Shown piece by piece: positions 3,302-35,263 of a DNA stretch of 55,525 bases. Positions within the stretch are counted from its first letter, which is position 1. Every line of letters starts with the position of its first letter. The notes below the pieces were generated by a model, which saw only the letters and a program-made list of their open reading frames with translations, was not told where the DNA came from and did not search any database. The position numbers and the translations under genes are program-made. Location: contig JACQZM010000191.1 in the NCBI GenBank assembly GCA_016213885.1, positions 1 through 55,525 on the forward strand, given 5' to 3'. Source of the DNA: Candidatus Rifleibacteriota bacterium. Lineage in GTDB: Bacteria > Muiribacteriota > UBA6191 > JACPRK01 > JACQZM01.

Positions 3302-6300
3302 ATGAGGACGCTGGATGGCTGTTCGGCGACGACTCGGCGGCCCGGCCCGGCTGGCGAGCGTCTCGCGAAGGCGGCGGCGTTCGCCGCGCTCGCCGCGTTC
3401 GCCGCCCTGGCGATCGCCGGCTGCGGCACCGGACCGGGGAGCAGCGGGGGAGCGTCGGGAGGCGGCGGCGATCCGTCCGGACCGCTCAAGATCACCTCGT
3501 TCTCCCCGACGCTGGGGCCGATGACCGGCGGCACCCTGCTCAGGTTCGAGGGGTCGGGGTTCGTCGGGTCCATGGCGGTCACCGTGGGCGGCGTGGCCAC
3601 CACGGACCTCCAGGTCCTCTCCAGCGTCCTCATGACCTGCATCACCCCCGCGACGAGCGAGCCCGGCGAACGCGACGTCGTGGTGACCTCGAGCCTGACC
3701 GGCGCGGTCTCCCTGCCCCGGGCGTTCGCCTACGGTCCCGGAGCCAGGGCCTCGGCGGTCAGCCCGTCCAGCGGCCCGCTGGCCGGGGGAACGCCGATCA
3801 CGATCGGCGGAAGCGCCTTCGAGGGCTCGATCACCGTGATGATCGACGGGATCGCCGTCGTCGGCCCCTGGGTGAACGGCGCGAAGAACCAGATCACCTG
3901 CCTGACCCCTCCGGGCGTCTCGACCGGTCCCAAGGACGTGACCGTGGTCTCCTCGACGAACGGCACTTTCAGCATGGCCGGCGCCTTCACGTACAACCCG
4001 CTGCCCACCATCGGGAGCGTGACCCCGGGATCGGGCCTCCTCGTGGGTGGTACCCCGATCACCATCGACGGCACCGGCTTCGGCGGGGTCGTCCTGGTCA
4101 CGGTCGGTGGGGTTCCCGCGCCGGACGTGGCCGTGGACCAGACGAGGACCCGGATCCAGTGCCGGACGCCGCCGGGGGAGGCGCCCGGGGCCGGGGACGT
4201 GACGGTCGGCTCGTCGACCCACGGCTCATGCACGCTCACCGACGGTTTCTCGTACAACCCGCTGCCGTCGATCACGGCGGTGTCGCCCGCGAGCGGGCCG
4301 CTGATCGGCGGGACATCCATCGCCCTCGACGGGGCCAACTACGGCGGCACCGTCTCGGTGACCGTGGGCAGCCGCGCCGCCGCCAACGTGGCGGTGAACG
4401 GCGCCGAGACCCGGATCACCTGCGACACCCCGGCCGGCGACTCCGCGGGCCCCAAGGACGTGACGGTCCACTCGTCGGTGAATGGGGTCTTTACCTACCC
4501 GAGCGGTTTCTCGTACAATCCGGCGCTCTCCGTGAGCGCCGTGTGGCCCACCAGCGGCCCGCTGGCCGGCGGCAACATCGTCATCATCCAGGGCGCCAAC
4601 TTCGAGTCGATCACGTCGGTCACCCTGGGCGGCGCGCCGGTCACGGGCGACCAGATCGATGCCACCAGGACCAGGATCACCGGCTGGGCCCCGGCCGGGG
4701 CGCTCGGCCAGGCCACCGTGGCCGTGGCCTCGGCGACCCACGGCTCGGCGACCCTCGTGAACGGCTACACGTACAACCCGGCGCCCTCGATCGGCGTCGT
4801 GACCCCTGGCAGCGGGCCGCTGATCGGCGGCACACCGATCGCCATCGACGGCTCGAACTTCTGGGGGACCGTGTCGGTGACCATCGACAGCGTCGCCGCG
4901 ACCGGCGTGACCGTGAACGCCACCGGCACCCGCGTCACCTGCGCGACGCCGCCGGGCGTCGCCGCCGGCTTGGTGGACGTGATCGTCGACTCCTCGAGCC
5001 ACGGCAGGTACACCTTGACCGACGGCTTCGAGTACAACGCCGCGGTGACGATCGCCAGCGTCACGCCGCCCAGCGGACCGCTGGTCGGCGGCACGCCGCT
5101 CTCGATCGCCGGGACCAACTTCGAGGGGGCGGTCACGGTCACGATCGGCGGCAAGGCGCCGTCCAGCTTCGCCGTCGACGGCGCCAGGACCCACATCACC
5201 TGCCCGGCGCCGTTCGGAAACGCCGCGGGCCCCGTGGACGTCGCCGTGAACTCGTCCACCCACGGGCCGGCCACCCTGGCCGGAGGCTACAGGTACAACC
5301 CCGCGCCCACGATCCTCGCGGTCACGCCGTCCACGGGGCCGCTGGCCGGAGGCACCGCGATCGCCATCGACGGCGCCGGCTTCGAGCCCACCATGACCGT
5401 CACCATCGGCAGCACCGCCGTGGCGGGCGTCTCGGTCAACACCTCAGGGACCCAGGCCACGTGCAGCACGCCGCCGGGGTCGACGGCCGGGCCGGTGAAC
5501 GTGGCGGTCCATTCGACGCTGAACGGGTCGGCGATCCTGGTCGACGGTTTCGCGTACAACCCGCTGGCGATCACCGGCGTCACCCCCGGGTCGGGGCCGG
5601 TCACCGGAGGCACCGAGCTCACCATCGACGGCCAGGGGTTCGAGGGCACGGTGAACGTGACGATCGGCACCCGGGCCGCCACGGACCTGTGGATCAGCAC
5701 GCTCTACGACAGGATCGTCTGCAAGGCGCCGGCCACCACGGCGGCCGGAACCGTGTCGGTGACCGTGACGTCGTCCACGTGGGGCCAGGTGGCCAGACCC
5801 GCGGCGTTCACCTACACCGTCGTGGACCCGTGGCCCTCCTTCGCGGCGATGGTCGGGTTCGCTTCGGGAACCGGTCCCCGATCGATCGCCGTGGCCGACT
5901 TCAACGGGGACTTCGTGCCCGACCTGGCCGCGGCCAACTCCCTTGCGAGCACGGTCTCGGTCTTCAGGAACAGGACCAGGCTGGCGATCGTGCCGCCTCG
6001 ATTCGACGGGGCGCAGAATTACGGCGTGGACCTGGAGCCGTGGTGCGTGGCGTCCGGAGATTTCGACCTGGACGGCCGGCCCGACCTCGCCACGGCCAGC
6101 TTCATCTCCGGCACGGTCTCGGTGCTGCTGAACCGCACCGCCCCGGGCGCCACGACGTTCACGTTCACCGGGGCCGTGGACACCCCCACCGGAGGCACGG
6201 CGCTGGGCTCCATGGCCGCGGCGGACCTGAACGCCGACGGCAGGCCGGACCTGGCCGTGGCCGACGCCGGGGCCGGGAGCTTCCGGGTGCTCGTGAACAC

Positions 6301-8146
6301 CACGCCGCCCGGCGGCTCGACCCCCTCGTTCGCCCCGTTCGCGGTCTCCACCGGCTCCACGACCCAGACGGCGCTGGTCGTCGAGGACCTGAACCGGGAC
6401 GGGAAGCCCGACGTCGTCCTGGTGCAGACCGGGGCGAACGCGGTGCGGGTCTACCTGAACACCACCGTTCCAGGGAGCGCCGCCGTCACCTTCGCAGCCC
6501 CGATCGCCGTCTCGACCGGCCCGCTGCCCTCGGCCGTGGCCGCCACCGACCTCAACGGGGACGGGGCGCTCGATCTGGCCGTGACCCATGGGGGCAACGG
6601 CACCGTGGGCGTGTGCCTGGCGACGCTCTTGCCCGGGTCGGTCTCCGTGACGTTCGCCGCCCGGGTCGATGTCGCCGTGGGCGCGGGCCCGGTCTCGATC
6701 GCGAGCGGGGACGCCAACCACGACGGGAGGCGCGACCTCGTGATCGCCAACAGCACCGACAGCTCCGTCTCGGTGCTGGTGAACGTGACCCCGATCGGGT
6801 CGACGGTGCCGGTCTTCCTGGACCGTCAACCCGACCTGGCCGTGGGCACCGACCCCCGGGCCGTGGCCCTCTTCGATATCACCGGGGACTTCAAGCCGGA
6901 CATCCTGGTGGCCAACGCCGGCTCGAACACGATCGGCGTCCTGGAGAGCTCCCTGGTGCTCCCGTCGCCGGCTCCCTCGTTCCGGACCGTGCTGGAGTTC
7001 TCCACCGGCCCCGCGCCCCGGGCGATGGCGGCGGCCGATCTGAACGGCGACGGCAGGGTGGACCTCGTGTCGGCCAACAGCTCCGCCTGCACCGTGTCGG
7101 TGCTGCTCAACACCACCGCCCCTGGCGCCACGGTCCCGTCGCTGGCGCCCCGGGTGGACCTGCCGGTGGCCTGCTTCCCATGGGCCGTGACGGTCGCCGA
7201 CCTGGACCTGGACGGCAAGCCTGACCTGGCCGCCGCCGGCGCCTCCGAGACCGACCCCGGCGTGGGCCTGGTGAGCGTCCTGACCAACCGCACCACCGCC
7301 GGCTCACCGACGCCGGCGTTCACCAGGTCTTCCGGCACCGACCTGATCTGCGGCCCGGGACCGACCGGCGTCGCCGCCGGCGATCTGAACGGGGACGGCA
7401 AGCCCGACCTGGTGGTGTCTCACCGGATCTCGGCCACGGATCAAGACCCGGCCTGCGCCAGCTGCTTCATCGCGGTGCTGATGAACACGACCCCGGCGCT
7501 GCCCGCGGCGCCGACGTTCAACACGACCAAGGTGGACCTCGACGTGGGCGACCCGGCGCTGCCGCCCTGGTCGCTGGTGCTCAAGGACATGCGGGGCCAC
7601 GGGATCCCGGATCTCACCATCGGTTTCGCCGGCGGGGTCAGGGTGTTCCACAACACCACCGTCACCGGCGATCCGACGCCCACGTTCTCGGCCACGGCCC
7701 CCACGACGCGGACCGACGCGACGGAGGTGTCCGGGATCGCCGACCTGAACGGGGACTGGAGGCCCGACCTCGTCCTGGCCACGGGCACGCCGCCGATCGC
7801 AACCGACGTGACGCCGCTTCTCATGACCGATCCGGTGTCGGCGACCTTCTCGGTCCAGACCGCCGCGGCGGCCGGCAGCGCCCAGGGGATCGCGGCCGCG
7901 GACCTGAACCGCGACGGCATCCCGGACCTCGCCACCGGGAACTTCCACGAGAACGCCGCGTCGGTCCTGGTGAACCAGACCGTGCCCGGGAGCGCCGCGA
8001 CCAGCCTGGCGCCCAAGGTGGACGTGTCCTCCGGCATCGGCCCCACGGCGGTCCTGTTCGCCGACTTCAACGGCGACGGCAAGCCAGACATGATCGTCTT
8101 GAACCGGACGTCCAACACCGTGTCGGTGTACCTGAACGCCCGGTGA
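3302..8146 (+). CDS. Large surface lipoprotein with 9 IPT/TIG domains and 14 FG-GAP/VCBS repeats
   Basis: Lipobox IAGC; nine repeats starting (I/V)xx(V/F)xPxxGxxxGG(T/N) and ending F/YxY; fourteen DxxxDGxxD-type motifs (ADFNGDFVPD ... ADFNGDGKPD). Confidence 0.9.
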   Translation: MRTLDGCSATTRRPGPAGERLAKAAAFAALAAFAALAIAGCGTGPGSSGGASGGGGDPSGPLKITSFSPTLGPMTGGTLLRFEGSGFVGSMAVTVGGVATTDLQVLSSVLMTCITPATSEPGERDVVVTSSLTGAVSLPRAFAYGPGARASAVSPSSGPLAGGTPITIGGSAFEGSITVMIDGIAVVGPWVNGAKNQITCLTPPGVSTGPKDVTVVSSTNGTFSMAGAFTYNPLPTIGSVTPGSGLLVGGTPITIDGTGFGGVVLVTVGGVPAPDVAVDQTRTRIQCRTPPGEAPGAGDVTVGSSTHGSCTLTDGFSYNPLPSITAVSPASGPLIGGTSIALDGANYGGTVSVTVGSRAAANVAVNGAETRITCDTPAGDSAGPKDVTVHSSVNGVFTYPSGFSYNPALSVSAVWPTSGPLAGGNIVIIQGANFESITSVTLGGAPVTGDQIDATRTRITGWAPAGALGQATVAVASATHGSATLVNGYTYNPAPSIGVVTPGSGPLIGGTPIAIDGSNFWGTVSVTIDSVAATGVTVNATGTRVTCATPPGVAAGLVDVIVDSSSHGRYTLTDGFEYNAAVTIASVTPPSGPLVGGTPLSIAGTNFEGAVTVTIGGKAPSSFAVDGARTHITCPAPFGNAAGPVDVAVNSSTHGPATLAGGYRYNPAPTILAVTPSTGPLAGGTAIAIDGAGFEPTMTVTIGSTAVAGVSVNTSGTQATCSTPPGSTAGPVNVAVHSTLNGSAILVDGFAYNPLAITGVTPGSGPVTGGTELTIDGQGFEGTVNVTIGTRAATDLWISTLYDRIVCKAPATTAAGTVSVTVTSSTWGQVARPAAFTYTVVDPWPSFAAMVGFASGTGPRSIAVADFNGDFVPDLAAANSLASTVSVFRNRTRLAIVPPRFDGAQNYGVDLEPWCVASGDFDLDGRPDLATASFISGTVSVLLNRTAPGATTFTFTGAVDTPTGGTALGSMAAADLNADGRPDLAVADAGAGSFRVLVNTTPPGGSTPSFAPFAVSTGSTTQTALVVEDLNRDGKPDVVLVQTGANAVRVYLNTTVPGSAAVTFAAPIAVSTGPLPSAVAATDLNGDGALDLAVTHGGNGTVGVCLATLLPGSVSVTFAARVDVAVGAGPVSIASGDANHDGRRDLVIANSTDSSVSVLVNVTPIGSTVPVFLDRQPDLAVGTDPRAVALFDITGDFKPDILVANAGSNTIGVLESSLVLPSPAPSFRTVLEFSTGPAPRAMAAADLNGDGRVDLVSANSSACTVSVLLNTTAPGATVPSLAPRVDLPVACFPWAVTVADLDLDGKPDLAAAGASETDPGVGLVSVLTNRTTAGSPTPAFTRSSGTDLICGPGPTGVAAGDLNGDGKPDLVVSHRISATDQDPACASCFIAVLMNTTPALPAAPTFNTTKVDLDVGDPALPPWSLVLKDMRGHGIPDLTIGFAGGVRVFHNTTVTGDPTPTFSATAPTTRTDATEVSGIADLNGDWRPDLVLATGTPPIATDVTPLLMTDPVSATFSVQTAAAAGSAQGIAAADLNRDGIPDLATGNFHENAASVLVNQTVPGSAATSLAPKVDVSSGIGPTAVLFADFNGDGKPDMIVLNRTSNTVSVYLNAR

Positions 8147-8210
8147 CCGGGGCTTGCACCACGGTCGAGGGGACAACGCCCCTATCCAGCGGACGCGGCT
8201 GGTGCCGTTC

Positions 8211-8864
8211 TCAGCGGGCCAGAACCGAGATGAGCTTCACGAGGCACCCGGCGACGACGATCCCCCAGAGCAACGGCTGCGGGTGCGACGTCTCGCCCTC
8301 CTTGCGGAACAGCCGGGTGAACCGCTCGCCCAGCAGGCCGCCCAGGGTGATGAACAGGAGTCCCGGCACCACCGACTGATCGAGGCACCGGAGGAACGAG
8401 AACGGCCAGCAGGGCCGGAGCACACGGTAGAGCAGCCAGAGGGAGGAGAGGAGGGCGCCGGCCACGGCGGCGACCCCGGCGCCCCGGCGGCCGAAAGGCA
8501 CCGCCGCCAGGAAGCCGGTCAGCAGCAGCACGCCGTAGAACGAGGCAGCGCCGAAGGGCAAGTACGGGTACGAACCGAGCCGGGCCGGGATGTCGTGGAC
8601 CAGGAAGTACGCTACCGACGCCAGGGCGCCCTCGTAGAGCAGCCGGAACCTCAGGCCCCGGTCGAAGGCGTACAGGATCGTCAGGCCGGTCCACCAGAGC
8701 GGGAGGATCAGCAGCGTCAGGACGCTGCGGCCGAACCCCCCGGGATAGAACAGCTTCCACCCGAGGACCAGCCCGGTCCACCACAGGACCAGGACCGTGA
8801 GGGAGATGGACAGCCACAGGGTTCGTCGCTCCAGGACGCTGCCGGACGGGGTCGTGCCGTTCAT
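8211..8864 (-). CDS. Multi-pass membrane protein of unknown function
   Basis: ATG at 8864 with GGAGG SD; about 6-7 hydrophobic segments. Confidence 0.7.
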   Translation of the reverse strand: MNGTTPSGSVLERRTLWLSISLTVLVLWWTGLVLGWKLFYPGGFGRSVLTLLILPLWWTGLTILYAFDRGLRFRLLYEGALASVAYFLVHDIPARLGSYPYLPFGAASFYGVLLLTGFLAAVPFGRRGAGVAAVAGALLSSLWLLYRVLRPCWPFSFLRCLDQSVVPGLLFITLGGLLGERFTRLFRKEGETSHPQPLLWGIVVAGCLVKLISVLAR

Positions 8865-9039
8865 TCGGATCGCCTCCTCAACATGTAATGTGTAGGCGCG
8901 GCCGGGGGCGGCGGCCAGGTCTTCGAGCGAAACCGTGCGATCGGAGCCCTGAATGACACGTCGTGGTGCTAATCCCCGCCGGGGTTCTCTCCGACATGAA
9001 GGCATGAGCGCGCCCTGCTGGGCCGCGGTCGGGAGAATC

Positions 9040-9582
9040 ATGCTGAAGAGACTGGTCGGCACCTCGATCCTGGTCGTCGTCCTGTGCGCCCCGGGCCTGG
9101 CCAGACCGCGCGGCGGCGACCTGAGGCTCGCGGACGTGCCAGGGGACCACTGGGCGGTGGACCACATCCGCCGGGTCACCGCCGCGGGGCTCATGCAGAC
9201 CTACGACGGCAAGTTCCTGGGCAACACCTCTTTGACCCGCTACCAGACCGCCCAGATGCTCTCCCGGCTCATGGACCGGATGGGGAACCAGCCGATCGAC
9301 CGCAACACCGGCGGCCCGTCGAGCGAGATCACGATCCAGCTGGCCGACGAGGTCGCCAGCCTCAACGTGGCCCACTCCAACCTGGAGGAGAAGGTCGTGC
9401 AGCTCCGCCACGACCTGGAGGCTGTCCGGGAGGGGAACGGCGGAGGCGGCCACCACGGCGGACCGCCGCCGCCCCGGATCACCCCCGACGAATGGAACGA
9501 GCGGCTCCGCACCCAGGCCCCCGCGGCGTTCGCAGCGCTGCTGCTGTTCGCGTCGGCGGGCTTCGTGAAGACGTTCAAGTAG
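9040..9582 (+). CDS. SLH-domain / coiled-coil protein with C-terminal hydrophobic anchor (Omp-alpha-like)
   Basis: Signal peptide; SLH motif ADVPGDHWAVDHI...GLMQTYDGKFLGNTSLTRYQTA; coiled coil IQLADEVASLNVAHSNLEEKV; C-terminal AAFAALLLFASAGFV. Confidence 0.8.
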   Translation: MLKRLVGTSILVVVLCAPGLARPRGGDLRLADVPGDHWAVDHIRRVTAAGLMQTYDGKFLGNTSLTRYQTAQMLSRLMDRMGNQPIDRNTGGPSSEITIQLADEVASLNVAHSNLEEKVVQLRHDLEAVREGNGGGGHHGGPPPPRITPDEWNERLRTQAPAAFAALLLFASAGFVKTFK

Positions 9583-9767
9583 CCCTGCGACCGAGGGGCC
9601 GGTTCGCCTCGCGCGTCCAGAGAGCTCGTCTTTGGGCGTCGCGAGAATCTCTGGCCCCAAGATCCGGATCTGCTCCCCCTCCCCGCGGCTGCCGGGCCAC
9701 GGCTCCAGCGCCACGCCACCGTTCGGTCCGATCGTGATCGCCCGGGCACATCGTGGTCGGGGCGGGT

Positions 9768-10349
9768 TCAGGCCACGAGGTCGGCGATGCGCACGGAGAA
9801 GCCCGGGAGCACGTCGCCACCTTCCAGGAGCTCGTCTTTCCCGAGCTGGAGCACCTCGCGCCCGGGCCGGTACACATGGGCCGTGCGGGAGCGGGGGTCG
9901 ACGATCCACACGAGGCGCACACCCGCAGAAAGCCACTCCCGCGCCTTCTCGACGACCTCGCTCCATCGGTCCGAAGGCGAGACGACCTCGACCGCGAGGT
10001 CGGGTGCGATCGGCCAGAACCCATCCTCCGGGACATCGACAGGGATGCGAGCCGCCGCCACGAAGGCCACGTCCGGTGCTCGCACGGTGTCGGGGTCGCG
10101 CGATAGGATGAATCCGGTCTCGGCACCGCTCACCTCGCCCAGGTGGTTGGCAGCGACGTGGTTGCCGAGGACTCGGGCGATCTCCGCCGTGAGCTTGCCG
10201 TGCCTGCGCCCCGACGGAGACATCATCATCAGACTCCCTTTCACGAGCTCGCACCGCCCGACGTTGACGAGCTCGAGGAGCCGCTCGGCGGTGACCGGTT
10301 GCTCGCGCCTCGTCGCGACGGCATCCGACCGGGTTGACTTCATGGCCAT
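9768..10349 (-). CDS. Uma2 family (PD-(D/E)xK) endonuclease
   Basis: ELVKG...MSPS...HG, ETGF, RAPDVAFV, APDLAVEVVSPSD, GVRLVWIVDP, VLPGF; start 10349 or 10343 after GGAG SD. Confidence 0.92.
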   Translation of the reverse strand: MAMKSTRSDAVATRREQPVTAERLLELVNVGRCELVKGSLMMMSPSGRRHGKLTAEIARVLGNHVAANHLGEVSGAETGFILSRDPDTVRAPDVAFVAAARIPVDVPEDGFWPIAPDLAVEVVSPSDRWSEVVEKAREWLSAGVRLVWIVDPRSRTAHVYRPGREVLQLGKDELLEGGDVLPGFSVRIADLVA

Positions 10350-10674
10350 GCTCCTCTCCGGGAAGCCTACACCTTCCGGCTCACCGGATCCACACAGGGG
10401 TCCATCATTCTGAAAGTCGAACCCACGCGGGCGGGGGGCTCCGGCTCTTTCCCTGGTCAGGGCCGCAGCAGGCTGCGGGTTTCGGGACAGGGTCTGGACC
10501 AAAGCCACCGGTGGAGCCCGATTTTCGTGCGACATTTTCGGCCGAACACCTCAACGATTTGTCACCGGCTGTCGATGCCCTGGATAAGCCTTGTCGCGGC
10601 GAGTGCTGTTCGTTCGACTCGGCCCCCAGCCACGGGGCGCGGGAATCGCCGCAGGGAAGGCCAGAGGAAGACAC

Positions 10675-13600
10675 GTGGCCAGCTGGTCCAGGTCAGTGAA
10701 CAAAGACCCAGCCGCCAACGGCGGCGTCGGCCCCACGAGCCGGGCGACGGTTCTCCGGCGCCGGCCCGGGAGAGCCGCGTGGATGGCGCTCGTCATCCTG
10801 CTCGCCTGGGCCGGCCCGGCGCTGGCGCAGACCACGGCCACCTTCGCCACCAGCCTCGACTCCGCCTTGATCCCGCTGGGCGGTCCGGTGATCGAGCCGG
10901 GGGACACGATCTACATCCACGTCGCCAACGGTCCCGTCAGCCTGTTCCCGTTCGACAACGCGATCACCGCCGACATCGTCACCTCCCGGGGCGACACCGA
11001 ACGGATCTACCTGTTCGAGACCGACCAGGACTCCACGTACACCGGGTTCATCAAGACCAAGTTCGGCCCCAAGAACGGCCCACCGGTGATCTGGAACGGA
11101 CAGCTCGAGGTCCGGGGCAACGACACCGTCACGGTCACCGTGCAGAACGCCCCCCAGATCACGGCGACGGTCTTGACGAACGGCACCGTGAAGCTCCTGG
11201 AGATCCGGGAGAACGCCGACAGCCTCAACATCCCGGTGAACCCGCTTCCCGAGGAGGCCGGGGAGCTCAAGCTGCTCACCGTGGGCAAGTCGTTTCTGAT
11301 CCGGGTCGTCGACGACGACCGCAACCTGAACCCGGGCGTGGTGGACACGATCGCCCTGGTACCGCTCCAGGTCCAGATCGTGGGCGGCGTCGATCTGGAG
11401 ATCCCCGGGACCGGTGGCGGCCTGCCGCTGTTGAGCGAGACCGGCCCGGACTCCGGCGTCTTCGAACTGGTCGTACCCACCCGGTACGCCCGGACCGTCA
11501 CGCCGAACAACGGGATCCTGGAGATCGACGCGGGGGTCGACAGGATCATCGCCACCTACAACGACCTGTTCACCACCCACGGCATCCAGCCGCTGCCGGC
11601 CCTGGCCGACGTCCGCGGCGGCTACGACGGGACGATCCAGTACACGAGCCCGATCGCCCCTCCGATCCTGACCCCCGGGCCCGGGATGGACCTGAGGGTC
11701 CAGGTGGACGACCGGGACGACGCCGCGAACCAGCACGCCGGGCCGGGGAACGACACCGTCATGGTGACCCTGACCGCCTACAACGTGGGTCACACCGTGG
11801 CGCTGGACCGCGAGACGTTCGAGGTCAACGAGGACAACCTGGAGGCGCTGCCCCAGATCCTGTTCTTGCGGTCGATCCCGTTCCGGTTCATCCCGACCGG
11901 CTCGTACACGGTGCACAACGGCGTCCTCGAGGTGGCCCCGGGCCAGGAGATCTGGGTCACCTACAACGACGCCCTCCGGGCCACCGGCGAGCGGGACGTG
12001 CCGATCTCCACCACGGTCAACGTGTCGATCTCCACCGCCTGGGCCAACGTGGAGCCGACGATGAAGTGGTCCAACGACCTGTTCTGCGGCGACCGGCCCA
12101 ACCCGCCCGGGGACGTCATCAAGCCGGGCGACACGGTGTACATGTGCGTCACCGACGTGAACTCCGACCTGTCGAGCGATGTGGACCGGGTCACGGTGAC
12201 GCTCGTCACGCAACCGGACCTGTCCCCGGCCCCGGGGCCGAACGACCGGGAGGTCGTGGTGCTCACGGAGACCGGCCCGCACACCGGTATCTTCGCCGGG
12301 TGGATCGACTCCCGGTTCGGCGACCCGATCGTCCAGAGGAACGGCATGCTGGACGTGCGGGGCCGCGACACGCCCACCGCCCAGGTGACCGCCACCTACC
12401 TCCCGTTCTGGAGGCAGGGCGGTCCGATCTACCCGATCCAGGGCCTGCGGGTCCATATCGACGGGGCGGTCCGCATCGTCGCAAACGGCACGGCCCGCGG
12501 GTCCAACGCCGCCGGCCCGATCCGGGTCGCGGACAACGGCGGCGGCGAGGTCGGAACGATCGACCAGTTCACCGCCGGCGAGGGGCTGTTCCTCCAGCTG
12601 GTGGATGACGACGCCAACGTGAACCCCAACGCCGCCGACTCGATCGAGGTGACTCTCTCCAGCTTCTCCGGCGCCGATCCCCCGACCGGCCCGATCCAGT
12701 CCTCGGCTGCGAACCTGGTGGACCAGCTGAGGGTCAGGCTTTACGAGACCGGACCGAGCACCGGCATCTTCGTGGTCCAGCCGAACCTGCTGACCGACAT
12801 CCAGCACGACCCGTTCAACTTCATCCCGACCAGGTACACCGCCGGAGCCGGCGACCTGACCAACAGCATCCTGGAGGTGCGCGCCGAGGGCCCGGTCGAC
12901 CCGCCCGGTCCGTGGGAGCTCGCGAACCACCTGAACACCGTGGTGATCGAGTACCCCGACACGGAGCGCACGTACCCGACCCAGCCGGCGTGGCCCCGGG
13001 ACTCGGTGTTCATCCGCAAGGGCCATCCGGACACCGCTCCCAACGTGGTCGACGCCGTGACCGGGGGCGACGTGCAGGGTGGCGACGACCTCAGGGTGAC
13101 GGTCCAGAACGAGCCCGACGCGAGCTTCCACACCGGCCCGGGCAACGACACGCTCACCGTGACCGTGACCTCGTACGCCCCGGACTTCGCCACCGTGGTG
13201 GATGTCGAGCAGGTGGTGCTCCACGAGGACAACGGGACAACCGGGGACTTCGAGGGGCTGTTCCCCACGGCCTACGTGAACGGCCGCGCCCTGGACCCGA
13301 CCCGCTCCCAGGGCAACGGCATCCTGGAGGTGCGGACCGGCGGCCGGATCGTGGCGGTCTACACCGACCCGCTGCGCTACGACGGCAGGCCGAACTTCCC
13401 GGTGGCGTCCGCGACGACCCCGGCCAACGGTCGGGCCGTGGTCACCCCGGCCGCCGCGGCGGTCCGCTTCGTGAGCTCCAACGACGCCACGACCACGAAC
13501 ACGACGCTGAACCCCACCGCGAAGGTGACCCTGACCCAGCCGGGCGACACGCTCTGGATCCGGGTCGACGACCAGGCCGCCCAGGCGGTGCCCAACAATC

Positions 13601-16545
13601 ACACCAACGGCGTCACCGTGACCTTGCGGGTGCTGAACGGGGCCATCGTCGAGGACCAGGAGACTCTGTTCGTGGCGGAGACGCCGGTCAGGGTGTTCGA
13701 GCAGGCGCCCAACGAGATCCGGGGCGTCTACATGGGCCAGATCGACACCATCTGGGGCGACACCATCGGTACCGGAGACTTCCGTCGGGGCGACGGGACG
13801 CTCCAGGTGCGCGGCCGGAACATCGTGGAGGTCTCCTACTGGGACATCACGAACTCCGCCGTCCGGGCGGACGTGACCTACGTCCACGTCCTGGGCGAGG
13901 CGCAGTTCATGTCGAACGGCGGCACCCACGAGCAGCAGGGGAACAACGCCTTCAGGCTCGACGGACGGCTCCAGGCGATCAAGGTGTTGAACGAGACCAA
14001 GAGCGACCAGCTCACGGTCCGGGCCGGCGATCCGATCCGTCTGGTCGTCATCGACGACGACCGGAACGCGGACCCGGTGACGGCGGAGACGTTCACCGTG
14101 GTGGTCTCGTACCCGCCGCCGCCGGCGGTGCCGGTGGACCAGGAGACGGTGACCTTGAGGGAGACCGGGCCGGACACCGGCGTGTTCGTCCTCGACCCGA
14201 CGCTCTACCCCGACGGGCTCCGCACCCAGCTCAACGCCGTGGCGACCGCCGGGGACAACATCGTCCAGGTACCCGCGGGAGGCCGGATCCACCTGAGGTA
14301 CCCGGACACGACCGTGCCGTCGCCGGCGTACGGGCCCTCCATCACCGTGGACATCGAGGACGACATCAACGTGCAGCCTGCCGGGGAGGCGACGCTTCTG
14401 GTGAACGACCAGGCGACCCCGGACCTGGTGACGAACACCGTGATGGCCGGTCACAACCTGTTCATCAGGGTCACGGAGCCGGCCATCGCCGATCCTCATC
14501 AGGAGCCGAGGTTCGACCCCAACGTCCTCGACACGGTGACGGTGAACGTCACCTCCGGTTCCGTGATCGTGGGGCCCGGCGGCAGGACCGAGCGCGACGT
14601 CGAGGCGGTGGCGCTCCACGAGACCGGCCTGGACACGCGGGTGTTCGAGGGGTTCCTCCCCACGGTCCACAACCGGTACGCCACGCCGACCAACGGGGTG
14701 CTCGAGATCGCCGACACGGACGCGGCTCGACGGCCGATCGCCGTCACCTACGTCGACCCGCAACCGGTGCGGGCCGGCACCTTGATCGTGAACGACGGGA
14801 CCTACACGGCCGCCACGTCCAACGTGCTGGTCATCACCTACAACCTGCTGACCCGCTTGGGCGCCGACGCCACCATCGGGATCGTGTCGACCTGGTGCAC
14901 GAACGACGACGAGTTCATCCTGGGTGACACGCTCAGGGTCACGGTGTCCGACCCGGGGTTCGCCGGGATCGACGTCCCCACGGTCGGGGTCACGATCACG
15001 GCGCCGTCCGGAGACCAGGAGTACGTCATCCTGGGCCAGACCGCGGTGGGCAGCGGCTTCTTCGACACCGACGCGGCGCCGTCCCACCGGGTGCCCACGG
15101 CGTTCGACCAGTCGATCGTGAGGTTCGACGGCCTGGTCGAGATGGTGGGCGGGTGCACCTCCGACAACGCCCAGCTCAGGGGCGAGCCGCTGATCGCCAC
15201 GTACGTGATCCCGCTGGACGCGTCGGGGCACGTCATGAGGCCGGTGTCGGCCACGATCCGCGGGTTCACCCGGGCCACCCTCAGGGCCGCCATCGACCGG
15301 CAGCGCCAGTCGCCGCCGACCCCGGCCCGGCCGAACCCGCTGCCGGAGCCGCAGCCGGTCTTCCCCGGGGAGCAGGCGCTGTTCACCAAGGACGATACCC
15401 TGACGGTGTTCAAGGCGTACGACCGGATCTGGATCAAGGTCGTCGATCCGGACATGAACTGCCCGCCGCGGTCGACCAACTCGCTGACCGTGACGTTGAC
15501 CACGAACAACCTGGTGAACGGCATCACCCCCGGCGACTTCGAGGTGATCCGGCTGACCGAGCAGCCGCGGCTGAACGGCGAGACGGTCCGGGGCGTGTTC
15601 ATCGGCTCCATCGGCACCGTGCCCGCCCCGGCCAACACCACCCCGGTGGGGCTCAGCGGCACCGTGGAGCTCGTGGGCCGCGACCTGGTGACCCTGACCT
15701 ACCAGGACTTCAACACGAACGTGGCCAACACCTGCCTGATCTCGTCGATCAACACGTCCACCGAGACCAGGAACGACGGCCAGATCCAGATCGTCGACGG
15801 CCCCAACAGCTCCACGTCGGTCTCGATCATCTCGCTGACCCCGCTGCCGGGCCAGGCGACCGCCATGGTCTGGATCAGAATCGTGGACAAGGACCTCGAC
15901 GGCGACAACCTCCCCGGCACGGACCAGGGCCCGGTGGTCACGATCACCACCGACGCCGGCGACAGCGAGACGGTGAACACGTTCGAGTCGGCCACGGTGC
16001 CCGGGGAGTTCCGGGGCCAGATCCCGATCGTGTACGGCCGCCCGCCGGTCAGCGGCAGCACCAGGATCGAGGTCACGGCGGGCGACAAGGTCACGGCCTG
16101 CTACACCGACGACTTCAACATCAACCCGGGCATCCCCACCCAGCGCTGCGCCTCCGCTTTCGTGGAGCGGTTCTACGGAGCGGTCCTCGAGGTGTTCGTG
16201 CCCAGGACCGGCCTGTACCATCCGCCCAACAGGCTGGAGGAGTTCATCATCCCGGAACGGCTCAGGGTCCGCGTCAGGGACCAGGACCAGAACCTGACCG
16301 CCGCCCGGGACGCCGTGCAGGTCACGTTCGCCACCAACAATCCGATCCGCCCTGACCAGGAGACGCTGATCCTCACCGAGAGCGGCAACGATACCGGGAT
16401 GTTCGAGGGGGAGATCCCCACGGCGTTCCCGGACAACCTGAACTCGCCGGCCAACCTGGCGGCGCGGCAGAACAACGGGGTGCTGACCTGCGTCGGCGGG
16501 GACACCCTGACGATCACGTACGTCGATGCCCACGCTCCACCCTGA
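10675..16545 (+). CDS. Giant secreted Ig-like repeat protein (adhesin/S-layer-like), N-terminal part
   Basis: Signal peptide ...MALVILLAWAGPALA; ~13 repeats with GDxxxIxVxD...D(Q/R)ExxxLxETGxxTGxF...NGxLEV...YxD; start GTG 10675 (GAGG SD) or ATG 10783. Confidence 0.85.
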   Translation: MASWSRSVNKDPAANGGVGPTSRATVLRRRPGRAAWMALVILLAWAGPALAQTTATFATSLDSALIPLGGPVIEPGDTIYIHVANGPVSLFPFDNAITADIVTSRGDTERIYLFETDQDSTYTGFIKTKFGPKNGPPVIWNGQLEVRGNDTVTVTVQNAPQITATVLTNGTVKLLEIRENADSLNIPVNPLPEEAGELKLLTVGKSFLIRVVDDDRNLNPGVVDTIALVPLQVQIVGGVDLEIPGTGGGLPLLSETGPDSGVFELVVPTRYARTVTPNNGILEIDAGVDRIIATYNDLFTTHGIQPLPALADVRGGYDGTIQYTSPIAPPILTPGPGMDLRVQVDDRDDAANQHAGPGNDTVMVTLTAYNVGHTVALDRETFEVNEDNLEALPQILFLRSIPFRFIPTGSYTVHNGVLEVAPGQEIWVTYNDALRATGERDVPISTTVNVSISTAWANVEPTMKWSNDLFCGDRPNPPGDVIKPGDTVYMCVTDVNSDLSSDVDRVTVTLVTQPDLSPAPGPNDREVVVLTETGPHTGIFAGWIDSRFGDPIVQRNGMLDVRGRDTPTAQVTATYLPFWRQGGPIYPIQGLRVHIDGAVRIVANGTARGSNAAGPIRVADNGGGEVGTIDQFTAGEGLFLQLVDDDANVNPNAADSIEVTLSSFSGADPPTGPIQSSAANLVDQLRVRLYETGPSTGIFVVQPNLLTDIQHDPFNFIPTRYTAGAGDLTNSILEVRAEGPVDPPGPWELANHLNTVVIEYPDTERTYPTQPAWPRDSVFIRKGHPDTAPNVVDAVTGGDVQGGDDLRVTVQNEPDASFHTGPGNDTLTVTVTSYAPDFATVVDVEQVVLHEDNGTTGDFEGLFPTAYVNGRALDPTRSQGNGILEVRTGGRIVAVYTDPLRYDGRPNFPVASATTPANGRAVVTPAAAAVRFVSSNDATTTNTTLNPTAKVTLTQPGDTLWIRVDDQAAQAVPNNHTNGVTVTLRVLNGAIVEDQETLFVAETPVRVFEQAPNEIRGVYMGQIDTIWGDTIGTGDFRRGDGTLQVRGRNIVEVSYWDITNSAVRADVTYVHVLGEAQFMSNGGTHEQQGNNAFRLDGRLQAIKVLNETKSDQLTVRAGDPIRLVVIDDDRNADPVTAETFTVVVSYPPPPAVPVDQETVTLRETGPDTGVFVLDPTLYPDGLRTQLNAVATAGDNIVQVPAGGRIHLRYPDTTVPSPAYGPSITVDIEDDINVQPAGEATLLVNDQATPDLVTNTVMAGHNLFIRVTEPAIADPHQEPRFDPNVLDTVTVNVTSGSVIVGPGGRTERDVEAVALHETGLDTRVFEGFLPTVHNRYATPTNGVLEIADTDAARRPIAVTYVDPQPVRAGTLIVNDGTYTAATSNVLVITYNLLTRLGADATIGIVSTWCTNDDEFILGDTLRVTVSDPGFAGIDVPTVGVTITAPSGDQEYVILGQTAVGSGFFDTDAAPSHRVPTAFDQSIVRFDGLVEMVGGCTSDNAQLRGEPLIATYVIPLDASGHVMRPVSATIRGFTRATLRAAIDRQRQSPPTPARPNPLPEPQPVFPGEQALFTKDDTLTVFKAYDRIWIKVVDPDMNCPPRSTNSLTVTLTTNNLVNGITPGDFEVIRLTEQPRLNGETVRGVFIGSIGTVPAPANTTPVGLSGTVELVGRDLVTLTYQDFNTNVANTCLISSINTSTETRNDGQIQIVDGPNSSTSVSIISLTPLPGQATAMVWIRIVDKDLDGDNLPGTDQGPVVTITTDAGDSETVNTFESATVPGEFRGQIPIVYGRPPVSGSTRIEVTAGDKVTACYTDDFNINPGIPTQRCASAFVERFYGAVLEVFVPRTGLYHPPNRLEEFIIPERLRVRVRDQDQNLTAARDAVQVTFATNNPIRPDQETLILTESGNDTGMFEGEIPTAFPDNLNSPANLAARQNNGVLTCVGGDTLTITYVDAHAPP

Positions 16546-17312
16546 CGCTGCCCAACGCGGCCCGGCTGACCCTGCCGGCCGGCGCGGTCCAGCTGAAGCA
16601 GATGATCACCTTCCAGCTCAAGTACCGCGCCCAGTACAGGGACGAGTACGACAAGGTGATCCCCACGCCGCTCAACCCGGGGGTGCAGCTGATCGGCGAC
16701 TCCGGTCGGGTGGGCCTGTACGAGGTGAAGCCGTCGAACCTGGTGTTCAAGAAGCTGGCCACGTTCGAGATCCCGATCCCGGCCACGGCCACCATCCTGG
16801 GCGACGTGACGCCGCTGTCCGATGGCGACCGGCAGCGGCTCAGGCTGTTCTACTTCGACGGGTTCGACTGGCAGCCGTCGGCCGGCGAGTACTTCAGGGA
16901 CTCCACCGGCAAGGAGTACATCCGGGCCGTGTCGAACCACCTGACCTGCTTCACCCTGGCGCTGGACAACCGGCCGCCGCCGCAGCTCATCGGCCCGTTG
17001 CTCTCGGCGATCGTGCTCGACAAGAACCCGTTCACGCCCAACAACGACGGCATCAACGACAACGTGATCCTCCAGTTCGGTCTGGGGCAGGCCGCCTCGG
17101 TGAGCGTGAAGGTGCTCGACGCCAACGGCGACCTGGTGCGGACGCTGCTGGACCGGGGCTCCATGCAGGCCGGGTTCAACACGCTCCAGTGGGACGGTCG
17201 GTACGCCTTCTCGACGAGGACCGTGCCGCAGGGGATCTACGTGGTCGTGGTGAAGGCCGAGACGCCCAGCGCCAAGGACACCCAGAGCATCGGCGTGGGG
17301 GTGATGAAGTGA
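16536..17312 (+). CDS. ZU5-like segment plus FlgD-Ig/T9SS-type C-terminal domain; probable frameshifted C-terminus of the giant protein
   Basis: Frame is open and protein-like upstream of ATG 16602 (STLTLPNAARLTLPAGAV); ends with NPFTPNNDGINDN...VKVLDANGDLVRTL...WDGR...VPQGIYVVVVKA; no signal peptide of its own. Confidence 0.75.
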   Translation, partial: STLTLPNAARLTLPAGAVQLKQMITFQLKYRAQYRDEYDKVIPTPLNPGVQLIGDSGRVGLYEVKPSNLVFKKLATFEIPIPATATILGDVTPLSDGDRQRLRLFYFDGFDWQPSAGEYFRDSTGKEYIRAVSNHLTCFTLALDNRPPPQLIGPLLSAIVLDKNPFTPNNDGINDNVILQFGLGQAASVSVKVLDANGDLVRTLLDRGSMQAGFNTLQWDGRYAFSTRTVPQGIYVVVVKAETPSAKDTQSIGVGVMK

Positions 17313-18322
17313 GGCTCCTCGTCCTCGTGATCGGCCTCCTCGTCCTCGCCATGCCGACCCGGGCCGAGTTCAACGACATCGTCACCGGCGCCCGGCCGGC
17401 CGGCATGGGCGGGGCGTTCGTGGCCCTGGCCGACGACATCAACGCCCTGTACTGGAATCCTGCCGGGCTGACCCTCTCCCGGGCCCCTCAGATAGGCGCC
17501 ATGAAGGCCGACGAGATGACGCCGACCCTGGGGCCGAAGTTCACCACGGACTTCTTCGGGCTGTCCAGCGGGAACGCGGGCTACGGCGCCCTGGGGATCG
17601 CGGTGCTCCGGCAGGGCCTGTCGGACATCCTGCAGGAGCGGACGCTGTCGCTCTCGTACGGCCTGGCGCTCAACCCGTTCACCAGGCTCGGGCTGAACCT
17701 CAAGACGATGGCGCTGATCACCAAGCCGGAGGGGCGCTACTTCCCGGACCCGGCGCTGACCGACAGCTCCACGCTGGGGTTCGACCTCGGCGGGCTCCAC
17801 GTGGTGACGCCGGACCTGAGGTTCGGCTTCCTCGTGAGGAACCTGGCCGCCAGGCTGGGAACGGTCGAGCGCGAGGAGGTCCGCAGGACGTACCGCGTCG
17901 GCGCCGCGTACCGCCTGCACACGGAGCTGATCGACGAGGACTACCTCTGGATCACCCTCGACCTCTTCACCAAGGAAGACATCGACGACGAGGCCGGGCT
18001 GAAGATCCGGAACTCCTTCGGTTTCGAATGGCAGCTCACCCCCTGGATCGCGGTCCGGATGGGAGCGGACCGGGGTCGGCTCACGGCCGGCGCCGGCATC
18101 ACCGCCCTGGGCCTCTCGATCGACTACGCGTTCGCCGAGGAGCAAGACGCCGTGGGGACGAGCCAGCGGATCTCGCTGACCTACCGGTTCGGCGGCGAGG
18201 TGCACACGGAGCGCAGGGAAGTGACGGTGCGGCACCGCCCGGAGCCGCCGTACACGCCGGCCCCCAGGTTCGAGAAGCCGCCCAAGTTCGAGAAGAAGCC
18301 TAAGCGGAAGCCCGAGGGCTAG
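17309..18322 (+). CDS. PorV/PorQ-like (FadL superfamily/UPF0164-type) outer-membrane beta-barrel
   Basis: GTG overlaps upstream TGA; signal peptide; GARPAGMGGAFVALADDINALYWNPAGL; alternating beta-strands ending IDYAF...QRISLTYRF. Confidence 0.8.
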   Translation: MRLLVLVIGLLVLAMPTRAEFNDIVTGARPAGMGGAFVALADDINALYWNPAGLTLSRAPQIGAMKADEMTPTLGPKFTTDFFGLSSGNAGYGALGIAVLRQGLSDILQERTLSLSYGLALNPFTRLGLNLKTMALITKPEGRYFPDPALTDSSTLGFDLGGLHVVTPDLRFGFLVRNLAARLGTVEREEVRRTYRVGAAYRLHTELIDEDYLWITLDLFTKEDIDDEAGLKIRNSFGFEWQLTPWIAVRMGADRGRLTAGAGITALGLSIDYAFAEEQDAVGTSQRISLTYRFGGEVHTERREVTVRHRPEPPYTPAPRFEKPPKFEKKPKRKPEG

Positions 18323-23835: not shown

Positions 23836-24007
23836 CTCTCGCCGACGGTTCGTGCCGCCCCCGGCCGGTCGGTTGCCTCGCCCTGGTCGTGTGAGCGAGA
23901 TTCTTCGCGGAATCCTGGCTTTCGTGCTGCTGCCCACTTGTCATTTGGACGATCCTCTTGTTATATTTATGCGCTCCTTTTCCCTTGGAGAAGATCGGAG
24001 GCTCTTG

Positions 24008-24787
24008 GTGAGGCTGATCCTGGCTATCGCGCTCCTTGTTCTGTGGGGGATGGCAGCTGTGGCCGCACCCACCGCGATCACCGGCTACGAGATCGTGGCG
24101 GATCCGGCGCTGATCTCAGGCATCAAGCCGCTCAAGCCCAAGTTCGTCGCCAACGTGGGCAAGCCCTATTCGCGCACCCTGCTCCTGGAGGATGTCCGGC
24201 GGTTCCAGATGCTGGGCACCGTGGGCATGGTCAGGGCCGGCGAACAGTCGTTCAAGCAGGGCAAGAAGCTGCTCTACCGCGTGGAAGCCAACCCGGCCAT
24301 CCGATCGATCACCCTCTCCGGGGTCAGCCTCTTCAAGCCCGAGGAGATCCTGAAGCGGTTCCAGACCAGGCCCCAGCAGATCCTCGACTACAATCGTCTT
24401 TTCGCCGACATCAACGCGATCCCCGACTACTACATGGAAAAGAAGGGGATCATGTACGCCGATGTCACGGACCTGAAGGACGTGGCGGTGCGAGACGGCC
24501 ACGTGAAGATTCACGTCCGGGAGTTCAAGATGGGGGATCTCGTCGTCAAGGGGGTCAAGGGACCGGAGGCGGACCTGATCCGGAAGTCGTTCAAGGTCAA
24601 GAAGGGTTCCGTGATCAACCGGGCCACCCTGCTGGCGTCGCTTCACGACATCTTCCAGCTGTCCACCGTCAAAGATCTGGACTGGTACCCCCGCTTCGAC
24701 AGGGAGCGGGCCACGGTCTCGATGATCCTCCAGGTCACCCCGGTGGACGAGTCGCTACCGCCCAAGGGGCGCTCGCGCGCGGACTGA
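24008..24787 (+). CDS. POTRA-domain-only periplasmic protein
   Basis: GTG with GGAGG SD and signal peptide; three POTRA-like units (e.g. IRSITLSGVSLFKPEEIL...ILDYNRLFADINAIPDYY); stops without a beta-barrel. Confidence 0.75.
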   Translation: MRLILAIALLVLWGMAAVAAPTAITGYEIVADPALISGIKPLKPKFVANVGKPYSRTLLLEDVRRFQMLGTVGMVRAGEQSFKQGKKLLYRVEANPAIRSITLSGVSLFKPEEILKRFQTRPQQILDYNRLFADINAIPDYYMEKKGIMYADVTDLKDVAVRDGHVKIHVREFKMGDLVVKGVKGPEADLIRKSFKVKKGSVINRATLLASLHDIFQLSTVKDLDWYPRFDRERATVSMILQVTPVDESLPPKGRSRAD

Positions 24788-35189: not shown

Positions 35190-35263
35190 CCGCCAGGACC
35201 CGGGAAAGAGGCCTTCCGGAACGCGACGCCTTGACTCCTCCTCAAGACGAAGGAGGGAGTCGC

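Follow-up and report, generated by a model that had tools for sequence, protein, structure and literature searches.

The 55,525-nucleotide contig JACQZM010000191.1 from a metagenome-assembled genome (MAG) of Candidatus Rifleibacteriota, here called the window (i.e. the whole stretch of DNA that was analysed), carries three plus-strand reading frames that are the subject of this study: a giant open reading frame (ORF), a frame encoding a C-terminal sorting domain (CTD) of the kind found in cargo of type IX secretion systems (T9SS), and an ORF for a PorV-like outer-membrane barrel. We consider it rather probable that this barrel is a dedicated carrier or anchor for a giant surface protein with a CTD; in the phylum concerned, searches found no orthologue of SprA (87 genomes) or PorU (three genomes). 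This reading is carried by the domain content, by a cargo encoded in one gene, by the coupling of the cargo and barrel genes, by the PorV-like fold of the barrel, by the recurrence of such pairs and by the outcome of the SprA and PorU searches. The features concerned are the following.

10696 or 10783..16545, plus strand: giant repeat protein, the 1,900+ N-terminal residues of the cargo (from the ORF, its translation, the G+C content at third codon positions (GC3) and repeats)
10783..10827, plus strand: signal-peptide-like hydrophobic stretch MALVILLAWAGPALA, then Q (read from the sequence by eye)
16479..16534, no strand assigned: break point with ~97 nt (32 codons + 1) fewer than in relatives, shifting the frame (from blastx, relatives and Logan contigs)
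16542..16973, plus strand: ZU5-like β-sandwich domain before the CTD (from an AlphaFold 2 (AF2) model and VIA-align)
16935..16946, plus strand: N-H-L-T, for which relatives have N-H-[LF]-[ST], in the turn that joins the final two strands of the ZU5-like domain
16989..17312, plus strand: CTD with NPFTPNNDGIND, an Ig-like β-sandwich, stop TGA 17310-17312 (from Pfam and fold matches)
17309..18322, plus strand: PorV/PorQ-family 14-strand outer-membrane barrel, 337 aa (from NF033709, AF2 and Foldseek)

A PorV-like barrel coupled to the cargo gene

The start codon of the barrel gene, GTG (17309-17311), overlaps the stop codon of the CTD frame, TGA (17310-17312), in a GTGA. A longer ORF call (16526..18322) has an Arg/Pro-rich N-terminal part, which results from reading the CTD gene out of frame. 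The barrel product opens with a signal-peptide-like VRLLVLVIGLLVLAMPTRA followed by EF (signal peptide at ~17309-17365) and ends in a basic, Lys/Pro-rich tail (~18206-18319). It matches the PorV/PorQ model NF033709 over model positions 3-326 of 326 (E 8.2e-19, 68.3 bits; 64.7 bits in a genome search), and no PorP model is among its NCBIfam matches. In an AF2 model made from a 40-row alignment (pLDDT 85.1), it forms 14 strands with an N-terminal segment inside the barrel, as in FadL and PorV. Foldseek places the PorV chains 8gl6_F and 6h3i_F at ranks 1 and 2 (TM 0.68-0.70, rmsd 4.3; for 8gl6_F, E 6.7e-12 and TM 0.70/0.64), with FadL and TodX chains below them (TM 0.49-0.58, rmsd 9-12, E about 1e-8) and BamG (9hiv_F) at rank 37 (TM 0.42). 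The protein is thus a 14-strand barrel of the FadL fold that is closest to solved PorV, and neither a PF03349 sequence match nor a nearest structure of the FadL type makes it a member of the FadL/Toluene_X family. An earlier reading of this DNA from its letters alone (the original prediction) had named a PorV/PorQ-like barrel coupled through GTGA, while allowing that it might be a plain FadL transporter; family match, structural neighbours and the overlap read in the sequence bear out the former, and the rmsd values speak against the latter.

Barrels 59-72% identical to that of the window are known only from metagenome proteins, and among reference genomes the subfamily is rare, with best identities of 30-31%. 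Three distant homologues (P0076, P0082 and P0100) carry precomputed PF11751 matches, and 'PorV/PorQ family protein' is a name that NCBI already gives to distant relatives, among others in Elusimicrobia and Glassbacteria. Some related barrels have extra C-terminal or fused domains, i.e. Cu_amine_oxidN1-like (just under cut-off), OmpA, LysM or TPR (loci L216:14567-15904 and L217:9092-10408, the latter on the minus strand; proteins P0045, P0076, P0083 and P0084); such added domains, and likewise the Lys/Pro-rich tail of the window's barrel, may serve to attach these barrels to the cell wall. Two further partial PorV-like matches in the MAG (C543:6108-6548 and C52:18-161, both on the minus strand), one of them at a contig end, were seen with a custom hidden Markov model (HMM) only.

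Modelling of the CTD–barrel complex, which the original prediction had proposed, was done with barrel residues 17-300 and CTD residues 150-254, alongside three controls. The complex reached ipSAE values of 0.83/0.83/0.82, the best of the controls 0.00, with a partner pLDDT of at least 87 and at least 89% of the contacts common to the runs. The pass mark applied is reached by 116/157 solved complexes and 2/215 mismatched pairs, counts that are rough here because custom alignments were used. The predicted CTD contacts lie on the connections after barrel strands 1, 3, 5, 9, 11 and 13, i.e. on the long loops, and by ordinary topology of outer-membrane proteins (OMPs) the contact face would therefore be the outer face of the barrel. 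From this model we infer that the CTD would bind the barrel. The complex would face outward and would probably anchor the cargo rather than merely shuttle it. Extracellular loops of PorV are described as binding a type A CTD in this way (PMC10994853).

The giant ORF and the CTD frame as parts of one gene

The giant ORF spans 10591..16545 (plus strand, 1984 aa). Its plausible starts are GTG 10696, with an AGG at a distance of 4 nt on its upstream side, or ATG 10783. The giant signal-peptide-bearing repeat protein that had been proposed for it is recognizable in the sequence: the hydrophobic stretch at 10783-10827 closes with ALA before the Q, and the signature DxDxN ... ETGxxTGxF ... NG.L.V recurs in ~7-8 copies. 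No Pfam and no NCBIfam family matches this protein, its first 1000 residues have no match among PDB sequences at E<=1 (phmmer), and a paralogue of the cargo on contig C695 of the same MAG scores 51 bits with the Kustd1514 S-layer glycoprotein family NF052345, far under the cut-off of 1400. GC3 of the giant frame is 0.96.

The giant frame closes at TGA 16543-16545, and the CTD lies in a different frame (16356..17312 from stop to stop), of which it makes up the last ~105 residues. Relatives run through this region without interruption. At the C695 locus, which has a like architecture, the CTD is in frame with the cargo; the metagenome contig L111 has a single ORF of 2181 aa, whose end (...VGVGVLK and stop) overlaps the gene of a 67%-identical barrel in an ATGA; and P0124, a 77%-identical protein fragment, shows one uninterrupted frame across the break region. 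Homology of the CTD frame to C695 and L111 begins at ~16533-16542, just where the giant frame ceases to align. The C695 alignment starts at ~16542, i.e. 20 codons upstream of the first ATG (16602), and in blastx against L111 the giant frame extends to residue 1889 (66% identical over residues 1685-1889) and the CTD frame takes over from residue 1922, the two meeting at 16533. Because of the in-frame CTD of C695, the single ORF of L111 and the read-through in P0124, a single gene evidently comprises both the giant ORF and the CTD ORF, and on these alignments the stop at 16543-16545 arises only from the break at ~16533. The CTD had been suspected to be the probable C-terminus of the giant protein, and the homology that joins both frames upholds this; a CTD ORF independent of the giant protein does not agree with the continuous relatives.

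Contigs of the Logan collection from four runs of one groundwater study were compared with the break region. Their depth is 0 over 16487-16527 in 4/4 runs, and the window's own junction thus has no contig support. In one contig (X1), 152 letters stand in place of 55 of the window; the additional 97 nt restore the frame, and 9 of the 86 neighbouring letters differ. Another (X2) has 0 differences over 16534-16707, while the 144 letters that precede 16534 are unlike those of the window. The 30-letter consensus of a loose end from this comparison is absent from the MAG. Since the Logan contigs differ at the junction and rpoB and pilB are also split in this MAG, the break is most likely an assembly fault.

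The ZU5-like domain and the CTD

The CTD passes the gathering thresholds of FlgD_ig (PF13860; 37 bits with a cut-off of 27, and 39.1 bits in a genome search) and CHU_C (PF13585; 30.2 bits, cut-off 27), which agrees with the FlgD-Ig-type C-terminal domain first read here. It stays under the cut-offs of the T9SS type B model TIGR04131 (20.6 bits, cut-off 35) and the type A model TIGR04183 (17.3 bits, cut-off 23) and has no match to PF18962, i.e. the type A models do not recognize it, though other cargos of the phylum match PF18962. Among many Ig-like folds, its VIA-align matches include the C-terminus of PorU (6za2_B, Z 7.9) and PorZ (5m11_A, Z 7.7).

The last 254 residues of the cargo were modelled with AF2 from a 6-row alignment (pLDDT 80.6). 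In VIA-align, model residues 1-142, i.e. the domain preceding the CTD, have a ZU5 fold (3f59_A, Z 9.8, rmsd 2.9, 109 aligned; 3ud1_A, Z 9.5; 6m3q_E, Z 9.2; the CD97 GAIN domain 9mqr_A, Z 8.2). This likeness surfaced only in the wide VIA-align search and not in Foldseek, which gave only generic tandem β-sandwich matches for the two-domain C-terminal model (TM 0.18-0.28); a Pfam match of the domain was not found. The N-H-L-T turn lies between strands E123-132 and E134-140 of the model. N130 and H131 are invariant in 6/6 aligned sequences, and N-H-[LF]-[ST] is present in 7/7 cargo ORFs of the phylum that match the domain HMM. GPS domains cleave themselves between HL and T and ZU5 domains between HF and S, and because of its likeness to these sites N-H-L-T is a candidate autoproteolysis site. 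ZU5/GPS domains have been noted as autopeptidases of large bacterial surface proteins in a passage of Zhang et al. 2012 (PMC3482391).

Recurrence of cargo–barrel pairs

PorV-family matches occur in 85/87 genomes of the GTDB phylum to which the host belongs, with 1 to 11 per genome, and in 79/87 genomes PorV-family paralogues pass the NF033709 cut-off; the PorV2 equivalog is above its cut-off in 0/87. From the listed matches, 60 PorV-family loci were picked by hand rather than at random, covering 10/11 families (none from f4), and analysed with custom HMMs. At 26 of these 60 loci the barrel has, on its own strand, a CTD-bearing ORF that ends no more than ~250 nt upstream, and at another 11, all from family f10, a CTD ORF lies ~900-1350 nt upstream; 23 loci have no CTD neighbour, two of them with little upstream sequence. 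Pfam (FlgD_ig, CHU_C or Por_Secre_tail) confirms the CTD segments in 41/41 cases at E<=1e-3, with at least 27 bits in 35/41. The search for other CTD–barrel pairs to which the original prediction had pointed thus finds 37/60 sampled loci paired, adjacent or spaced. At one locus with the f10-type gap (L246), a 232-aa lipoprotein-like ORF stands between cargo and barrel, this being the one gap where an ORF was found. Outside the phylum, adjacency was seen at 6/17 genome loci (from Desantisbacteria, 'Clostridia' and unclassified MAGs) and 14/19 metagenome loci, counts that come from the custom HMM only and were not checked with Pfam. The pairing of CTD and barrel is a system and not a coincidence. 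Full-text word searches of the open-access literature for CTD–barrel pairs, PorV-like proteins or a T9SS outside Bacteroidota, and for Wallbacteria and Riflebacteria, found no such pairs described.

Where a barrel has no CTD neighbour, its gene tends to come after one for a ~430-500-aa lipoprotein-like product, often near aroE and pilB (L254, L263, L265, L268 and L276). On contig C295 of the MAG (12030-17551; L213), the gene of a 1677-aa CTD protein directly precedes that of a 152-aa protein consisting of hardly more than a signal peptide and another CTD. The two proteins have KIAVLR as their C-terminal residues, as do f10-type cargos, and no barrel was seen on C295.

Searches for T9SS machinery

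With model TIGR04189 (cut-off 200 bits), SprA was above the cut-off in 0/87 genomes of the phylum, a set that includes 44 with a completeness of at least 90%; the best score was 53.7 bits, and 23.2 bits in the window's own MAG (G000), compared with 778-994 bits in 4/4 Ignavibacteria genomes, which were reached via a PorV homologue. PorU (NF033707) was under its cut-off in the three phylum genomes searched (54.4 bits in G000, 151 in G061 and 60.7 in G001) and scored 935-1397 bits in three controls; the weak matches in the phylum are to the C25 peptidase domain or to CTD-like tails. The sprA/sov and porU searches that the original prediction had called for thus yielded no orthologue above cut-off. 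Together with a Wallbacteria-like rpoB (see below), this argues that the genome is not that of a member of the Fibrobacterota–Chlorobiota–Bacteroidota (FCB) group with a canonical T9SS.

For GldM, GldL and GldN (TIGR03517, TIGR03513 and TIGR03523) there was no match in G000, G061 and G001 save one GldL of 17 bits, and none in two Ignavibacteria controls; GldK was not searched, and GldM was matched in 6/25 Bacteroidota (5 above cut-off). These non-matches mean little because the models also miss the Ignavibacteria controls, and GldM, GldL and GldN were dropped as a test for the motor and ring, given that Ignavibacteria with SprA were missed and GldM was matched in so few Bacteroidota. A set of 14 control genomes for T9SS families proved useless, there being no SprA or GldM match in them. 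The MAG encodes a 791-aa protein (C330:26190-28565; L215:10191-12566, minus strand) with Propeptide_C25, Peptidase_C25 (PF01364, 229 bits) and a C25 C-terminal Ig-like domain, whose likeness to gingipain and PorU seems, by its sequence, limited to the catalytic domain and which might process CTDs.

A lead on translocation comes from the C695 locus (1485-11795; L211), which encodes a ~2,350-aa cargo (with an N run inside), a 652-aa OMP ending in Phe and a 417-aa PorV-like barrel that is 52% identical to that of the window. The same order of cargo, OMP and barrel is found in G001 (C45) and G002 (C2), with an OMP of ~650-670 aa; the window's own pair has no such gene alongside. This ~650-aa OMP is homologous to a family of ~850-1300-aa OMPs adjoining xerD (hhalign probability 99.6, E 1.3e-23), which matches no Pfam family and is the source of the weak SprA matches that 80/87 genomes of the phylum show (examples are L212:7041-8897, L218:7067-9619 on the minus strand and L220:7760-10786). 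The xerD-linked OMP has a 96-column stretch in common with SprA (probability 95.8, E 6.6e-9), and the 652-aa OMP aligns with SprA over 132 columns (probability 79.5, E 1.5e-5); ESM Atlas look-alikes of the latter are hypothetical proteins. All four Ignavibacteria controls carry both the short SprA-like family and true SprA, and because of this coexistence the short family is a paralogue and not a SprA orthologue. The 652-aa OMP as a putative 'mini-SprA' is thus a lead, not a finding. In non-FCB MAGs with pairs, ORFs of 1387-2043 aa show several colinear SprA segments (best 136.5 bits, none singly >200); these ORFs, in G115 (C60), G117 (C106), G118 (C475) and G119 (C221), i.e. the genomes of L010, L016, L002 and L013, come from Desantisbacteria, a 'Clostridia' MAG and two unclassified MAGs and may encode divergent proteins of the SprA type beyond the FCB group.

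Host lineage and neighbouring genes

The window is contig C142 of a MAG of 8.39 Mb in 710 contigs, with 78% completeness and 68% GC. Among the loci listed for its rpoB piece, one from a Candidatus Wallbacteria MAG is 76% identical, and the remaining 79, mostly of Bacillota and Atribacterota, have at most 64% identity; taxonomy from marker genes, as had been recommended, thus argues that the MAG is not an FCB member. Three genes of the window provide context.

35231-37276, plus strand: SLH-porin-like gene (SLH/coiled-coil likeness to OmpM/SlpA)
38201-39934, plus strand: SLH-porin-like gene (same likeness)
40196-42238, plus strand: SLH-porin-like gene (same likeness)

Pfam SLH matches are present in two of the three, and all three match the SLH-porin region NF033921 below its cut-off. 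By phmmer, and in the SLH/coiled-coil part only, they resemble SlpA of D. radiodurans (7zgx, 6.8e-13) and OmpM1 of V. parvula (8bym/8byt, 2.2e-10). By their sequence these genes suggest an outer-membrane tether of the OmpM/SlpA type, and a preprint, in the part that concerns these phyla, reports OmpM homologues for Wallbacteria and Riflebacteria and places both among diderm Terrabacteria (10.1101/2021.05.31.446380). The SLH/OmpM-type envelope unlike that of Bacteroidota, which the original prediction had assumed, thus finds support, as does a host that appears to be a Wallbacteria-like diderm outside the FCB group.

A second giant gene of the window (3302-8146, plus strand; 1614 aa) encodes nine IPT/TIG domains and then FG-GAP/VCBS repeats, behind a lipoprotein-like N-terminus (...AIAGCG) and without a CTD. 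At 23852-24787 (plus strand), preceded by a DUF3352 ORF, lies an ORF of 311 aa in which one POTRA domain and a weak match to the N-terminus of BamA were found; it may be a fragment of an Omp85-type gene. The pilB gene of the window (T2SSE ATPase) is in two ORFs (42624-43832 and 43860-44369), and rpoB of the MAG (C529:9645-13299) extends over two frames with an in-frame TGA; both splits are signs of indel or stop errors in the assembly.

Discussion

If the barrel is indeed a dedicated carrier or anchor, a single operon would encode a Sec-exported surface protein of ~2,200 aa and the translationally coupled outer-membrane barrel that holds it. The cargo would consist of repeated β-sandwich modules, the ZU5-like domain, a short proline linker and the T9SS-type CTD. 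The long extracellular loops of the barrel would bind this CTD, in the way in which PorV deals with type A and PorP/SprF-like proteins with type B CTDs, and the giant protein would be displayed and anchored at the cell surface as an adhesin or an S-layer-like coat. Our preferred guess for its crossing of the outer membrane is either a non-canonical route via the short SprA-related OMP family or assembly assisted by the β-barrel assembly machinery (BAM). At the conserved N-H-L-T of the ZU5-like domain the passenger may be severed from the CTD stub, either staying attached or being shed.

Several points weigh against a dedicated carrier or anchor. The NF033709 score of the barrel (68.3) is under the curated cut-off of 90, its equivalog scores are under their cut-offs as well (PorV, NF033710, 24.4 vs 250; PorQ, NF033711, 17.3 vs 220; PorV2, NF052325, 53.6 vs 325), and it matches no Pfam family at E<=0.01, PorP_SprF (PF11751) and PF03349 included. 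The assembled window carries an interrupted cargo gene, and the MAG is only 78% complete. As many as 23/60 barrels have no CTD neighbour, and therefore the PorV-like family also has other roles; all 10 sampled loci of the window's own class are without a CTD neighbour. A PorV–CTD complex has already been solved (8GL6), and the score of the predicted complex may reflect memory of that structure and not binding; the pass therefore shows likeness, not binding of the window's pair. Finally, a plugged 14-strand barrel cannot itself pass a folded protein of 2,200 aa, and our explanation therefore stands without a translocation step.

A wider proposition, which we put forward as tentative, is that a CTD together with a PorV-like carrier constitutes a self-standing system of surface display that is older or more widespread than the T9SS of Bacteroidota. 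It would operate in OmpM diderms of the Wallbacteria/Riflebacteria type without SprA, PorU and PorKLMN, using the short SprA-related OMP, with the ZU5-like self-cleaving joint shedding the passenger, and the classical T9SS would be an elaboration of it.

It is unlikely, in our view, that a complete but very divergent T9SS was missed by our searches and that the pair is simply its ordinary carrier–cargo pair. Room for this is left by the silence of the GldM, GldL and GldN models even in Ignavibacteria with a full SprA and the recovery of GldM in 6/25 Bacteroidota, by the ~850-1300-aa OMPs with a SprA-like stretch in 80/87 genomes, by the 1387-2043-aa ORFs with colinear SprA segments in other non-FCB MAGs with pairs, and by the Peptidase_C25 protein (229 bits with PF01364) in an incomplete genome. 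However, SprA was found in none of 87 genomes, 44 of them at least 90% complete, with the same model giving 778-994 bits in controls; the short SprA-like family occurs beside true SprA in 4/4 Ignavibacteria and hence is a paralogue; and PorU reaches at most 151 bits, through its C25 domain only, compared with 935-1397 in controls.

Improbable, too, is a role of the barrel, alone or with BAM, as translocator as well as anchor, in a two-partner system like Slam/type XI or type V secretion in which the CTD would serve for recognition and no separate translocon would take part. Slam is a 14-strand barrel encoded beside its cargo; in the phylum, the majority of pairs consist of just two genes (26/60 adjacent), as in the window and L111, and no canonical translocon was found (SprA, 87 genomes). 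Yet we know of no precedent for a barrel of the PorV/FadL fold moving a protein, the model has an N-terminal segment inside the barrel, as in FadL and PorV, and the window's barrel matches no Pfam family, with DUF560, the Slam barrel family, presumably within the Pfam library scanned. Moreover, the C695, G001 and G002 loci insert an OMP of ~660 aa, which hints at a further membrane component. What FadL-type barrels are reported to do within BAM, according to the account of BamG–BamH in PMC12578637, is to serve as platforms for surface proteins, which favours the translocator role to some extent.

The break in the cargo gene could also be real, i.e. a 97-nt deletion with a frameshift that has made the gene a pseudogene in this strain and left the pair decaying. 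As assembled, the window does have the stop at 16543-16545 and the change of frame, and in the four Logan runs no public contig was found with the expected in-frame sequence and 100% identity on both sides. The junction of the window is equally unsupported there, however, with depth 0 over 16487-16527 in 4/4 runs; the contig identical over 16534-16707 diverges upstream, and a related contig with 97 additional nucleotides restores the frame. GC3 is kept at 0.96-0.98 in both halves of the cargo gene, the rpoB and pilB splits in the same MAG point to assembly errors, and we regard decay of the pair as quite improbable. Very improbable is an ordinary FadL-type channel for hydrophobic compounds in an incidental position behind the giant gene: the fold is that of the FadL family, with Foldseek E values of about 1e-8 for FadL/TodX, and some barrel homologues have precomputed PF03349 matches, but the 4-nt start/stop overlap is retained in the L111 orthologue, 37/60 sampled loci are paired, PorV fits far better (rmsd 4.3 vs 9-12), the window's barrel itself has no PF03349 match and the complex prediction passes against its controls.

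For the dedicated carrier or anchor that we favour, the wider context is that the carrier step has been understood only in connection with the SprA translocon. In the phylum studied here the pair of carrier and CTD is common and often present in multiple copies, with up to 11 PorV-family matches per genome, most of those examined lying behind a CTD ORF, which suggests that the pairing of cargo and carrier works outside the bacterial group known for it. If the pairs are functional, either there is an undescribed route that takes the giant proteins to the surface, or a strongly reduced relative of SprA suffices; either answer bears on the origin of the T9SS and its minimal working core. With two or three genes, the module is simple and open to co-expression tests. 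For genome annotation, 'PorV/PorQ family' outside Bacteroidota marks cargo-linked barrels, not a T9SS.

Comparison with known systems

In the literature found by open-access full-text word search, the T9SS is described, in the passages concerned, as confined to Bacteroidota or the FCB group. The binding of CTD cargo to barrels in Bacteroidota, where the original prediction took such cargo to depend on barrel shuttles, is documented in the relevant passages of PMC10994853 (PorV and CTD) and of PMC9143113 and PMC12618676 (type B).

The ZU5/GPS superfamily shares with the window's cargo a ZU5-like fold in a giant surface protein and a conserved His motif at the turn before the last strand. It differs in that the domain here has no Pfam ZU5 match and conserves N-H-[LF]-[ST] instead of the CxH given in the corresponding passage of PMC3482391, and in what that source offers on these domains no description was found of a ZU5-like domain placed directly before a T9SS-type CTD.

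PorV (LptO; 6H3I, 8GL6) is the best structural neighbour of the barrel, with the CTD predicted on extracellular loops as in the solved complex. Identity to it is 17%, however, the equivalog score is 24.4 vs 250, and no SprA was found for docking in the 87 genomes. PorV serves many cargos and is encoded apart from them, whereas the window's lineage has one barrel per cargo.

In BamG–BamH of the Bacteroidota BAM, a 14-strand FadL-fold barrel also holds a surface protein via extracellular loops, and a bamG2–bamH2 pair is described as lying in an operon (both from the account in PMC12578637). The partner of BamG is a lipoprotein and not a CTD protein, and the BamG–BamH arrangement is closer to the phylum's 'core' PorV-like genes behind a lipoprotein gene than to the pair of the window.

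Type B cargo, in turn, binds PorP-like barrels that are genetically linked to it and for which an anchoring role has been proposed in the sections of PMC9143113 and PMC12618676 on this subject. Unlike these PorP/SprF proteins, the window's barrel matches PorV/PorQ models and not PorP_SprF, the CTD is under the cut-off of TIGR04131, and the host appears to be a Wallbacteria-like OmpM-type diderm in which no SprA or PorU orthologue was found by the searches above. In common with SprB–SprF and PG1035–PorP, the locus has a giant, repeat-containing, adhesin-like cargo whose CTD has a motif of the NPFTPN.DG.ND type (CHU_C above cut-off), a barrel gene directly downstream (through GTGA here and ATGA in L111, with 26/60 sampled loci adjacent), a barrel dedicated to each single cargo (relatives having several such pairs in a genome), and a barrel for which an anchoring role is proposed.

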